Positions 5,787-9,169 of a stretch of DNA of 11,376 bases are shown here, one piece after another. Location of the stretch: UHGV virus genome UHGV-0146776, one strand, 5' to 3'. The stretch is from a virus. Both the position numbers and the translations under genes were made by a program. Below the pieces are notes generated by a model, which saw only the letters and a list, made by a program, of their open reading frames with translations, had not been told where the DNA came from and ran no database searches. Numbering within the stretch: position 1 is the first letter of the stretch; each line of letters opens with the position of its first letter.

Positions 5787-7520
5787 TTAAAGCGAGCGGA
5801 TCCCATAGGACTCAATGTGGTCAGACAGCGTGTCTTCTTTCTCGTACAGCATGGCTCTGCCAACCGCCATAATCAGCGCAACTGCACCATCGATTTTGTT
5901 TTCCGCCTGCTCTTTGACGGGCTTCACCACATCATCGTTACCCGGAATGGTTTTGCCGACCACGTTGCCGATACACCAGGTCATGATGGGATTGCCATCA
6001 TGATGAAAGCGCCCCGATTCAATTGCCGCTTCCAGCTCTTTCATCGGGTCGGACATGTTGGTGTAGTTCTGAATGATAGTGATGGGGTTCAGGTCTTCAT
6101 CAGCAAGGTCATGTGACAACCCGGTCGCCCCGAAGGGGTCGATGGGTGACTCACTGACCGGGCTGATTTTGTTCGCCGCTTTGGCCTCCTCGAGGATGTA
6201 GCGATAATCCACCTCCGCACCATCGGTAACGGTCAGAACGCCCATTTCCACCCATTTCTGAAAGCGTTCGGCTGTCCGTCGATCTTCATTTTTCTCGACG
6301 CTGTACACCGTGTCATACGGTACCCAGAAACGCGGGGCCACACTGTAGTAATGCGTTTTACCGTCAATCTCGCGGGTATAAAGTCGCGCCATGCTGTTCA
6401 TATCCAGCTTACGCGCCAGGTCAAAGGCCAGAATGCACGGCTGCCCCTCGAACTGCTCAAGGGTCAGTGATTTATCCTCGCAGCTCTGCCAGCTCACCAG
6501 GTTGAAATACGCCGAACGCGCCGACACCCAGATATTGAGGTGTTTTGTTTTAAAGACGTTTGCCAGACGGGCGTTATTTTTCGCACGCTGCTGCTGACTT
6601 AACAAAAATTCGCGATAAACCGACACGCCAATATTCGGGTTAGCTTTTTCCAGCACCTGCGGGTCGGTCCAGTCATCGCCTTCGTCAACGGTATAGATGA
6701 TCCCGAACAGTTCATCGTTGGGTACCGACCCGTTGAGCATCTCGATAACTTCCCGTCGCTTGTCGTAGCACGGCCCCTCAATGTTGTACCCGGCAGTAGT
6801 AATGGCCCACATCAGTGGCTGACGTCGCGCCCCCATCCCGGTAAGCATCGTGGTGTAAAGCGCATCGGTGGCGTGCTCGTGATATTCATCCACCACCGCA
6901 CAGTGGGGTGATGAACCATCACCGGGGTTACCGATCAGCGGTTCAAACCGCGCGCCATCCTCCGGACGATTCATGTTTGAGGCGTTAACCTCAATCCCGA
7001 ACGCTTCCGTCAGCATGGGTGTGCGTTTACACATCAGTCTTGCCGGACGAAAGACTTCCCATGCCTGTTTCTCCGTCGTGGCACCGGAATACACTTCCGC
7101 GCCGAACTCGTTATCACAGGCAAAACAATACAGGGCGACACCGGCAGAGATTGCTGATTTGCCGTTCTTACGGGGGATTTCGGTATACACCTCCCGGAAG
7201 CGGCGCAGCCGGGTGCCTTTATTGACCCAGCCAAACGCACAGCAGATCACAAAGAGCTGCCACGGCTCCAGCGTGATGGGCATCCTCTTGAATGCCCACT
7301 CACCCTTGGTGTGCGGCAACAGCTGAATAAATTTGGCGGCCCGTTCAGCCAGGTCCTTGTCGAAGCGGTAACGAAACGACTTACTTTTTTCCGCCATCAG
7401 GTCATCAAGATGGCGCTGGCAGGCCTGAATCACAAACTGGCAGGCCACAATCTTTCCGCGCACGACATCCCGGGCATACTGATTGGCAGCATTTACGTTG
7501 GGGTAAGATTTCCGGCTCAT
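5787..7520 (-). CDS. Terminase large subunit (ATPase/nuclease)
   Basis: 577 aa. Walker A-like [14 protein letters not shown] near the N-terminal third. ATGA overlap with the upstream terminase small subunit gene at 7517-7520. Position is directly upstream of portal. Confidence 0.9.
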
Positions 7521-8011
7521 GATTCGATAATTTTCAGAAACGGGTTAGTGGCTTTCTTCTTCCCCGCCAGGCCAATCAGACGCTGACGGCTGCTGGGGTC
7601 GAGTCCGAGCATTGCCCCCGTACTGCTCATCTCGGACTCCTGTTCTTTTTTGGCGGTCAGCTCCGGATTTTTGACCATGCCGCCCATTGCGCCGGTGATG
7701 GTGTTGCCCTGTATGGCAATATTTTTCACGGCACGTCGCCAGAACTCATAGGCCACGCACCACCGCTCAAGCACCGCGAGGTCAGTCACGCACAGCAGGC
7801 CCTGACCGCAGAGTTCTTTGGTTGTCAGTTGCCACATGATCGTGGCGAGAGGGAGATCTTCTTCAGCGAACCACTCCGGTGGCTCAACACCTTTGATGGG
7901 CGTAAAAACGGGTTCATCTTTGTTCAGGGCTCGCTTGCCGGGGTTTCCGGCCAGCGCCTTGCGCGCCGTTGGCTTGGGGCGACGCCCGGAACGCCCCGCC
8001 GTTCCAGCCAT
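7517..8011 (-). CDS. Terminase small subunit (P27-family-like)
   Basis: Track ORF starts with GTG at 8020; the ATG at 8011..8009 is preceded by AGGAG at about 8 nt. Basic N-terminus ([13 protein letters not shown]). Sits between HNH endonuclease and terminase large subunit as in HK97-type packaging modules. Confidence 0.7.
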
Positions 8012-8020
8012 ATGCGGCAC

Positions 8021-8136
8021 TCCTGGTTAAATTTCATTTTTCGCGGGTATAAAAAAACGATGGGGCGGGCAGTCCGGAAGACGTCAGGCTGCAGGGATTT
8101 GACCCGCCCCTCCCCTCAGACAGTTGAGAATTATTA
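8021..8136. other. Putative cos / packaging-site region containing a GC-rich 8-bp inverted repeat
   Basis: Non-coding gap between HNH stop and terminase small start. GGGGCGGG (8062-8069) and CCCGCCCC (8103-8110) flank a 33-bp spacer containing GACGTC and CTGCAG palindromes; the adjacent run of seven A (8051-8057) is a U-run for minus-strand RNA. Position matches where HK97-like phages carry cos. Cleavage site not determinable from sequence. Confidence 0.3.
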
Positions 8137-8487
8137 TCACTTTAACCGTTCACGGGCCGTCTTCGCCTTATGACACGGCCAGCACAGACTCTGCAGATTA
8201 CTGTCAGCATCAGTGCCGCCATGCGCTTTAGGGATGATGTGGTCAACAGTTTTCGCCTCACGCACCACACCAGCACGCAGACATAACTGACACAGGCCTT
8301 TGTCACGCTTCAGAACACGCACGCGGATAACATCCCACTTCGAACCATAACCGCGCTGATGACGGGATTGTCCAGGTTTGTATTGCTTCCAGCCTTCGCT
8401 TTTGTGGCTTTCGCAGTAGCCTGACGGGTCCGTGGTTGTAGAGCGGCAGCCGCGAACACGGCAGGCTTTTGGGATTCTAGGGGGCAT
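8137..8487 (-). CDS. HNH endonuclease (terminase-associated)
   Basis: 116 aa with Cys-rich N-terminus (CRVRGC...CESH) and HNH core VDHIIPKAHGGTDADSNLQSLCWPCHKAK. Located immediately upstream of terminase small subunit. Confidence 0.85.
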   Translation of the reverse strand: MPPRIPKACRVRGCRSTTTDPSGYCESHKSEGWKQYKPGQSRHQRGYGSKWDVIRVRVLKRDKGLCQLCLRAGVVREAKTVDHIIPKAHGGTDADSNLQSLCWPCHKAKTARERLK

Positions 8488-8537
8488 ATAAAAAATTTAT
8501 AATAAGTAAAATAATAAAGAAAAATGCTCAAAGGCAA

Positions 8538-9092
8538 TTATCTTGACTCAAATACAAATCTAGAAGAGATGAGCTTATCAAGCATTTTCATAAGTAAATC
8601 CTTACTCTCACCACCATTTATATATTTATTAAAGTTAGACTCGAACTCATGCCAAACTTTTTCTAACTCAGTATTATCAAATAAGTGCTCTGTCGCAAAC
8701 CATGAAGACTGGCAACAATCGAAAATACTCAAAAGTTCATCAAATCTTTTAACATTCTCTTCTCCCAACTCAATTTGCTGACTAATAAGATCTACATCTT
8801 TAAATAGCCATTTCGCAATAACTTGCTCTCGTTCATCATTGAGTTGCTCGGGGTCAATATTGACAGGCATAAATAATAGAGCTGTCTTTAATTTCTTTAA
8901 TGCATTCCTAAAATCTATTTTTACTTTTGTTTTCTCTTGTTCCCGCCACGTAAACAATGCCTTGAACGCCAAAAACAAAGTAACAATAGTAGCTCCAGCA
9001 CTCACCCAAGATGCAATCATTGCCCAACAAGCCCACTCAGCAGCAGCACGGTTTGCTACAAGTGTCTCATATGCAATATAATTTTCGTTCAT
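8538..9092 (-). CDS. Hypothetical membrane-anchored protein (184 aa) in AT-rich island; candidate moron / exclusion or defence protein
   Basis: Long ORF in DNA that is about one-third G+C on sampled lines, where chance ORFs are rare. ATG at 9092 preceded by GAGGT. One N-terminal hydrophobic segment (about residues 16-47), then KALFTWREQEKTKVK, then an acidic helix-prone ~135-aa domain. No family-level motif recognised. Confidence 0.75.
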   Translation of the reverse strand: MNENYIAYETLVANRAAAEWACWAMIASWVSAGATIVTLFLAFKALFTWREQEKTKVKIDFRNALKKLKTALLFMPVNIDPEQLNDEREQVIAKWLFKDVDLISQQIELGEENVKRFDELLSIFDCCQSSWFATEHLFDNTELEKVWHEFESNFNKYINGGESKDLLMKMLDKLISSRFVFESR

Positions 9093-9098
9093 TTTTAC

Positions 9099-9116
9099 CT
9101 CACTGTTAATAGTGAG
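9099..9116 (-). promoter_or_regulatory. Dyad symmetry element overlapping the ribosome-binding site of the island gene
   Basis: CTCACT-gttaat-AGTGAG: 6-bp perfect arms around a 6-bp spacer with a central TTAA. On the mRNA the 3' arm overlaps the GAGGU SD of the 8538..9092 gene. Confidence 0.3.
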
Positions 9117-9169
9117 AGTATTGTAACTAAAAGCATAATAACTAGAACAGTCAAATAATAATATTTCAC

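Follow-up and report, generated by a model that had tools for sequence, protein, structure and literature searches.

A known cos packaging site of the SfI/SfV/phiP27 type between the HNH endonuclease and small terminase genes of a prophage

In the DNA analyzed here, a stretch of 11,376 nucleotides (nts) from the virus genome UHGV-0146776 (hereafter the window), the gap that separates the genes of the HNH endonuclease and the small terminase very probably contains, at 8027-8115, the cos packaging site of a temperate phage of the SfV/phiP27 type with an HK97-like head module. The element belongs to the HNH-associated cos sites of phages with HK97/P27-type terminases, and specifically it is the SfI/SfV/phiP27 site. 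This site is already known: it was mapped in SfI, the phiP27 record annotates it, and it had been postulated for SfV. Its presence here is a correct and ordinary finding and no new system. The original prediction, made from the letters of the DNA, had placed a cos site with terminase binding elements in this gap, and that claim is supported by the mapped end of SfI, the annotation of phiP27, the ends of four deposited records and a conserved block at +15 to +35. Here and below, signed positions are counted from the nick on the gene strand, with 8061 as +1 and the 5′ direction as negative.

The minus strand is the coding strand for all genes of the locus. The HNH endonuclease gene (8137-8487, minus strand; 116 amino acids; Pfam PF01844, E = 2e-16; phrog_144) encodes the packaging accessory nuclease upstream of cos. 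On the other side of the gap lie the gene of the P27-family small terminase, terS (7517-8011, minus strand; 164 amino acids; PF05119, E = 1.5e-20; phrog_83), and that of the large terminase with its ATPase and nuclease (TerL; 5787-7520, minus strand; PF03354 and PF20441). Past the TerL gene, Pfam matches identify a portal protein, an S78 prohead protease and a capsid protein of the HK97 family, and holin, endolysin and spanin genes are located upstream of the HNH gene. By these matches, the window has the HNH-terS order at the head of an HK97-like head module, and of 67 related loci, 63 have an HNH homologue just upstream of their terS gene. The start of terS is the ATG at 8011 and not the GTG at 8020, as judged from the SfV annotation, in which terS starts at position 68, and from a good Shine-Dalgarno sequence (AGGAG) at 8020-8024; therefore, the true HNH-terS gap is 8012-8136.

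The position of the cohesive end comes from phage SfI. When SfI virion DNA was sequenced outward from the HNH and terS genes in run-off reactions, 10 nts, 5′-TGCCCGCCCC-3′, were missing compared with the prophage, and these were named the cos site (PMC3636060). The window has a single copy of these 10 nts, at gene-strand positions 8071-8062, and the cohesive end at 8062-8071 (TGCCCGCCCC on the minus strand, GGGGCGGGCA on the plus strand) is identical to the mapped end of SfI. In addition, the phiP27 record annotates a "cos-site" on the homologous 10-mer CGCCCGCCCC. Alignment to deposited genome ends, which had been suggested as a check on the predicted cos site, gave a consistent result: in four deposited records (SfI, Edwardsiella phage EPP-1, Burkholderia phage phi644-2 and HK97) the genome is opened at the counterpart of the bond 8062|8061, with the homologous 10-mer last and the base equivalent to 8061 first. 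The records of SfV, SfIV and SfII begin elsewhere in the gap (8078, 8078 and 8136, respectively), the start of the first two being 17 nts upstream of the mapped end, so that a deposited end need not be a true terminus. Headful packaging from a pac site was rejected, because the genome ends of close relatives are defined, and the literature treats these phages as cos packagers, unlike Sf6 and SfX (PMC3636060, PMC3851460).

The serotype-converting Shigella flexneri phages SfI, SfV, SfIV and SfII have the same HNH-cos-terS order and the same cohesive end TGCCCGCCCC as the window, and their DNA is 98-100% identical to it over the matched parts of the gap. SfV and SfIV are 100% identical over the 119 bp common to their records and the gap region, and SfI and SfII are 98% identical over the terS-side part covered by their records, in a comparison of 1.2 kb. 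The differences are small: position +1 is G in SfI and A in the window, the spacer of SfV and SfI reads CTGTGACC where the window has CTGCAGCC, and SfV lacks the extra AT-rich gene that the window carries between the spanin genes and the HNH gene. Among 5426 complete E. coli genomes, the site was found in 1129, approximately a fifth, and always where an annotated HNH gene stands next to that of a P27-family small terminase. Identity to isolated phages suggests that the copy in this prophage is active in packaging. Many E. coli prophages are defective, and only 11 kb of the element is visible, so that the region might be the decayed or inactive remnant of a cos site in a defective prophage. This is unlikely, however, since the isolated E. 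coli phage SKA5 matches the site and its surroundings with 100% identity over 241 bp, the nearly invariant columns of the family alignment all carry the consensus base in the window, and the HNH, terS, terL, portal, protease and capsid open reading frames are intact with full-length family matches.

To define the extent of the cos site, relatives were collected by searching species-representative genomes with an alignment of three TerS sequences of the P27 type, which gave 67 loci from Enterobacterales, Burkholderiales, Pseudomonas, Aeromonas, Azonexus and Roseomonas. From these, 64 distinct upstream regions were anchored on the motif CCGCGAA, which is thus conserved by construction. The 64 regions align without gaps, and conservation is confined to 89 bp at 8027-8115 (-54 to +35 from the gene-strand nick). 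From 8116 to the stop codon of the HNH gene it falls to approximately 0 bits, so that the cos site is separated from that stop codon by a non-conserved linker, 8116-8136, whose columns each carry 0.0-0.25 bits in the 64 relatives. Read along the gene strand, the site opens with the G-rich block and a variable spacer, continues with GGAC|YGCC and the overhang, and closes with a T-run and CCCGCGAAAAATGAAATTTAA.

The upstream block (8093-8115, minus strand; -54 to -32) reads GGGGAGGGGCGGG-TC-AAATC-C-CT, its conserved parts being GGGGAGGGGCGGG at 8103-8115, AAATC at 8096-8100 and CT at 8093-8094. G8107 is invariant, G is found at 8108 in 62 and at 8109 in 61 of the 64 relatives, and the AAA at 8098-8100 is conserved; the same block is present in HK97, Bacillus phage Gamma and GVE2. 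In lambda, cosQ is an upstream-side element, located where the translocating motor reaches the next cos, and the upstream block resembles it in placement, which would be the side of motor arrival. The variable spacer (8076-8092; -31 to -15) has the lowest conservation within the site, 0.05-0.8 bits. It is followed by the nearly invariant GGAC|YGCC (8068-8075, gene strand) at the left edge of the overhang, where A8073, C8072 and G8070 are each conserved in 63 of the 64 relatives. On the far side of the overhang, the A:T tract (8050-8057, minus strand; +5 to +12) consists of T7 and then A on the gene strand and corresponds to the run of seven A that had been noted in the gap, which is indeed present at 8051-8057. 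T is conserved in 54-63 of the 64 relatives at 8051-8055, and either A or T is found at the two positions closest to the nick.

The nicking region, cosN (8059-8075, minus strand), reads GGAC|TGCCCGCCCC|ATC on the gene strand. The nicks would fall at 8062|8061 on the minus strand and at 8071|8072 on the plus strand, the second being placed by the 10-nt length of the overhang. A local dyad, GAC-N10-GTC, surrounds the overhang with GAC at -13 to -11 and GTC at +1 to +3, and both strands would therefore be nicked immediately 5′ of GT. The GTC side is the weaker one; the window itself reads ATC, and A is found at +1 in 13 of the 64 relatives.

As to the polarity of the ends, the SfI paper reports a "gap" and leaves the polarity unstated (PMC3636060). 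Both SfI run-off reads copy the template to its 5′ end, and the 10 nts are missing from both, so that the 5′ ends should be recessed and the overhangs 3′. The ends of HK97 are 10-nt 3′ overhangs (PMC9410871, PMC11331095), and phage VarioGold was assigned 10-nt 3′ ends, CGATCGGTTC, by PhageTerm read-start analysis (PMC9658991); the VarioGold end resembles the overhang of the Burkholderiales loci found in our search for relatives. By analogy with HK97 and VarioGold, and from the design of the SfI run-off experiment, the cohesive ends here are most likely 10 nts long and 3′-protruding. With these positions, the annotation of the window can be fixed with high confidence as a packaging site cut at 8061|8062 and 8071|8072 with a functional extent of 8027-8115, which is of use for defining prophage genome ends and for reading termini in the sequencing of induced lysates.

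Which nuclease makes which nick was considered from the specificity of related HNH enzymes. We take the endonuclease ABB55436 of Bacillus phage Gamma to be N.phiGamma. The HNH protein of the window is 35% identical to this endonuclease (record DQ221100.2), and it matches the HNH nickase of GVE2 (PDB 5h0m, PMC5304195) over its full length with E = 2.6e-12. In HK97, the HNH protein gp74 stimulates cos cleavage (PMC9410871, PMC13595911). N.phiGamma and N.phiE2 nick CG|GT, which is AC^CG when written on the opposite strand, N.phi105 nicks YG|GTY, and related enzymes nick SG|GT (PMC3592412). The plus strand at the overhang edge reads GGCR|GTCC, which is the SG|GT form and lies exactly at the inferred second nick, and the same strand of HK97 has CG|GT at the overhang edge. 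At the junction of phage Gamma, GTAC|CGCCGCCCC|, the motif AC^CG lies exactly at the boundary of the 9-nt cos given in the annotation, and phi105 has a RAC^CR site one base off its annotated 7-nt cos.

Tentatively, these matches suggest that GGAC|YGCC (8068-8075) could be the nicking site of the HNH protein itself, although we hold this to be somewhat less than an even chance. The HNH protein would nick one strand in a sequence-specific manner, TerL would cut the poorly conserved other strand 10 nts away, and the G-rich block, which keeps a fixed distance in phages from Bacillus to Burkholderia, would be a docking or termination element. Against this assignment, gp74 of HK97 and lactococcal HrdP behave as non-specific nucleases in vitro, and gp74 enhances cleavage only at high terminase concentration. 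If it is true, it settles the assignment of nucleases to strands, which is described as open in papers of 2024-2026 (PMC11331095, PMC12967558).

The most conserved block of the site is CCCGCGAAAAATGAAATTTAA (8027-8047, minus strand; +15 to +35), and it is the candidate binding site of the small terminase. The TerS of HK97 binds a 15-bp site at +15 to +29, where it recognizes, by DNA shape, a G:C pair adjoining an A-tract of 9 bp, and it stalls the motor at cos (PMC11331095). The block of the window is built of CCCG, CG and an A-tract, with the junction at approximately +20/21 compared with +22/23 in HK97, and it is near-identical in phages of Burkholderia, Edwardsiella and Shigella. Judged by position, motif and conservation, CCCGCGAAAAATGAAATTTAA is most likely the small-terminase site. 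No sequence similarity between the TerS of the window and HK97 gp1 could be detected (hhalign probability 0.2%), and the prediction is therefore made by analogy and not by homology; a PDB search with the TerS profile gave zero matches, and HK97 gp1 has no Pfam match. The variant of the block tracks the N-terminal arm of the neighboring TerS, CCGCGAAAAATGAAATTT occurring with GRSGRRPKP and CCGCGAAATTAAAAATT with PGRGRKPKP. This match fits recognition by TerS, but since it comes from essentially two clades, linkage alone could explain it.

Taken together with what is known of HK97, the packaging of concatemers would proceed as follows. Terminase, composed of TerS and TerL, would work with the adjacent HNH protein, and two staggered nicks would flank TGCCCGCCCC (8071-8062), one at 8062|8061 on the gene strand and one at 8071|8072 on the opposite strand, to give 10-nt cohesive ends, most likely 3′-protruding. 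TerS would most likely bind CCCGCGAAAAATGAAATTTAA (8047-8027), 15-35 bp inside the new left end, comparable to the +15 to +29 of HK97 TerS, and the G-rich block at 8093-8115 would add another conserved element on the side of motor arrival.

The features from which the cos site had originally been proposed are present in the gap. The 8-bp inverted repeat consists of GGGGCGGG at 8062-8069 and CCCGCCCC at 8103-8110, which are perfect reverse complements separated by a 33-bp spacer, and the spacer contains the palindromes GACGTC (8080-8085) and CTGCAG (8089-8094). Nevertheless, these bare sequence features are not beyond chance. A repeat of this kind arises in 4.6% of shuffled copies of the gap, and approximately 14 further independent 8-bp inverted repeats with spacers of up to 60 nts are found in the 11-kb window. 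The spacer palindromes are also at the level of shuffled sequence (best stem 3 bp versus 3.2 expected), and across the family the excess of palindromes is slight, 11 of 500 shuffles reaching the observed total, and mostly due to the Burkholderiales sequences. That the region is real is shown by conservation among the relatives and by mapped virion ends, and not by the repeat.

When the arms were compared among the 64 relatives, the eight arm pairs were Watson-Crick in 53% of the cells in register and in 52-55% after a shift of 1, 3 or 4 columns; only 6 relatives kept the perfect 8-bp repeat. Covariation was absent at 8106/8066, the sole arm pair that varies on both sides. A conserved pairing was therefore rejected, and the repeat as a supporting structure for cos does not hold up. 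The left arm is part of the cohesive end itself and the right arm lies inside the G-rich block; the repeat is therefore a by-product, the coincidence of two separately conserved G:C-rich elements, and not a pairing element. GACGTC and CTGCAG were likewise rejected as signals, since GACGTC lies wholly and CTGCAG mostly in the least conserved columns of the site, both are absent from SfV, SfI and phiP27, and they occur at chance level, so that as supporting detail for cos they fall away as well.

The repeat could also be a functional DNA element of two-fold symmetry, either a cruciform or inverted sites at which one dimeric packaging protein recognizes GGGGCGGG on either strand. Both arms are inside conserved blocks, and a G-rich block upstream of a C-rich overhang on the same strand is a general pattern in HK97, Gamma, phi644-2 and enterobacterial phages. 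We consider this quite unlikely, however, because the complementarity of the arms is not kept in the relatives and the local GAC-N10-GTC around the overhang is the more convincing dyad. In addition, the upstream block of phi105 is C-rich (CCCCCCACCC) while its downstream AAATCCCT keeps its orientation, which argues against strictly inverted sites. It is very improbable that the repeat and the U-run form an intrinsic terminator or RNA hairpin that ends the lysis/HNH transcript of the minus strand before terS; a terminator of minus-strand transcripts had been offered as an alternative for the gap. Although the gene strand has the order GGGGCGGG, 33 nts, CCCGCCCC, AUCG and U7, and the T-run is conserved in the relatives, a terminator scan of 7700-8700 gave 0 sites because the loop is 33 nts and the U-run begins 4 nts after the stem, folding of the gene-strand RNA gives no stability beyond that of shuffled sequence (-25.4 versus -26.7 kcal/mol, z = +0.46), Rfam has no match at 7900-8300 with E up to 1, the pairing among the relatives is as described above, and in lambdoid phages late transcripts must read through cos into the head genes. 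No promoter was found in the gap.

The comparison has a modest by-product that may be of some value for work on HK97-type packaging, namely a cos architecture that is conserved without gaps across phyla together with a match of the conserved nick site to the specificity of HNH nickases. The details concern how far the site extends, the dyad around the overhang, the candidate TerS block and the agreement with HNH nickase specificity, all obtained by comparative inference and not amounting to a new system. The Stx2e phage phiP27 (NC_003356, cos-site at 21806-21815) has the same architecture and spacing, with the G-rich block GGGGAGGGGCGGGTCAAATCCCTGCA, GGGAC|CGCCCGCCCC|GTC, an A:T tract and CCCGCGAAA. 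Its TerS is also of the P27 family but only 49% identical to that of the window, and its downstream block is the other variant, CCCGCGAAATTAAAAATTT, which goes with the PGRGRKPKP N-terminal arm.

HK97, with gp74 as HNH protein, gp1 as TerS and gp2 as TerL, likewise has cos between the HNH and terS genes, with a 10-nt overhang after GAC|CG. As in the window, a G-rich block and TCAAATC are located approximately 40-55 bp upstream, and a junction of G:C with an A-tract is located approximately 20 bp downstream, where HK97 TerS binds. Unlike the window, its overhang is CGCCGCCAAA, the CCCG/A-tract junction is shifted by approximately 2 bp, and gp1 has no detectable similarity to the P27-family TerS.

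The cohesive ends of lambda are 12-nt 5′ overhangs, and its packaging uses repeated R sites, an IHF site and a Nu1-type TerS, with no HNH protein. The lambda cos (cosQ-cosN-cosB) follows the same logic as the site described here, with a nicking site, a TerS site on the terS side, an upstream element and fixed ends (PMC3851460). A lambda-type cos was rejected for the window: the mapped relative SfI has a 10-nt end, R-site repeats are absent and no direct repeats were found in 7990-8170, the TerS is of PF05119 and not of the Nu1 type, and an HNH protein is present.

Similar blocks are found in Bacillus phages and in GVE2. The cos region of phage Gamma, GGGTAGGGGCGGGTCGAAA...CCGTAC|CGCCGCCCC, has the G-rich block of the window at the same distance of 44 nts to GAC|, and Gamma and phi105 both combine a TerS of the P27 family with a characterized HNH nickase, N.phiGamma and N.phi105. 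They differ from the window in having Firmicute hosts, annotated overhangs of 9 and 7 nts, respectively, and the TerS-side motif at a different distance; in phi105, the upstream block is C-rich and not G-rich. Nevertheless, phi105 keeps TTAAATCCCT, and its downstream CCCTAAATGAAAATT resembles the block of the window. In GVE2, GGGTAGGGGCGG...GGGAC CGGCGG follows the stop codon of the HNH gene.

The conserved downstream block, which lies at 8027-8047 in the window and is the candidate TerS site, occurs in two variants, AAAAATGAAATTT and AAATTAAAAATT, among the relatives carrying a P27-type TerS (loci L012-L078, 30-100 nt upstream of terS). When the type of the TerS N-terminal arm was read from the first 20 codons of terS in the same loci, variant AAAAATGAAATTT was found to correspond to the arm GRSGRRPKP and variant AAATTAAAAATT to the arm PGRGRKPKP, and both block/arm types are present in Enterobacterales as well as in Burkholderiales. 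The small terminase of Edwardsiella phage EPP-1 (L006:48-653) has an internal tandem duplication of approximately 37 residues, which is absent from all other relatives and is either real or an assembly artefact.

The G-rich block and the GAC|CG nick motif of this cos site are also found in Firmicute phages whose TerS belongs to the P27 family and which encode an HNH protein as well. This comparison used the genome ends of Bacillus phage Gamma (DQ221100.2; L081+L079), GVE2 (L080:130-200) and the genome ends of phi105 (L084+L082). The G-block of Gamma starts 44 nt before GAC|, as it does in the window, whereas the upstream block of phi105 is C-rich, unlike the G-rich block of the window.

In the spacer from -34 to -12, counted from the gene-strand nick, some relatives, mostly Burkholderiales, carry palindromes with stems of 5-6 bp centred near -23 (L054, L057, L060, L032, L051, L069 and phi644-2). 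Their sequences differ, as in GAGGCGTCGCCTC and AGGCGATCGCCT, and across the whole family the spacer palindromes showed a small excess over shuffles (11 of 500); the spacer of the window is without such a 5-6-bp-stem palindrome. A second, imperfect inverted repeat of 12 nt, with 83% complementarity, was observed in the window at 7992-8003 and 8056-8067, its arms falling in the start of terS and in the cohesive-end region. In terS, the Arg/Gly-rich N-terminal arm is encoded by codons that are G-rich in their own right (GGCGGGGCG), and base composition probably accounts for the second repeat.

Between the spanin genes and HNH, the window contains an AT-rich island (8490-9160), where the GC content is 0.31-0.38 versus approximately 0.52 in the surroundings. 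Its single ORF (8538-9092, minus strand, 184 aa) had no Pfam match and matched phrog_6169 ('unknown function') with E=1e-74. Because Shigella phage SfV has just 27 nt at this place, the ORF looks like an inserted moron-type gene.

The database records of SfV (NC_003444) and SfIV (NC_022749) start 17 nt upstream of the mapped cohesive end, corresponding to window position 8078, and that of SfII (NC_021857) starts immediately after the HNH stop codon, at 8136. None of these records therefore begins at the physical end of the genome. The record of Salmonella phage 118970_sal3 (KU927493.2 / NC_031940.1) is 77,375 bp long, roughly double the length of its relatives, and contains two matches to the query; the assembly may be a dimer or a concatenation. 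Another record, the 5.6-kb contig JAEWTL010000102.1 (L012), is labelled 'MAG: Bacillota bacterium' and carries a terS 99% identical to that of the window; its cos region is almost identical as well, and the contig probably represents a fragment of an enterobacterial prophage assigned to the wrong bin.
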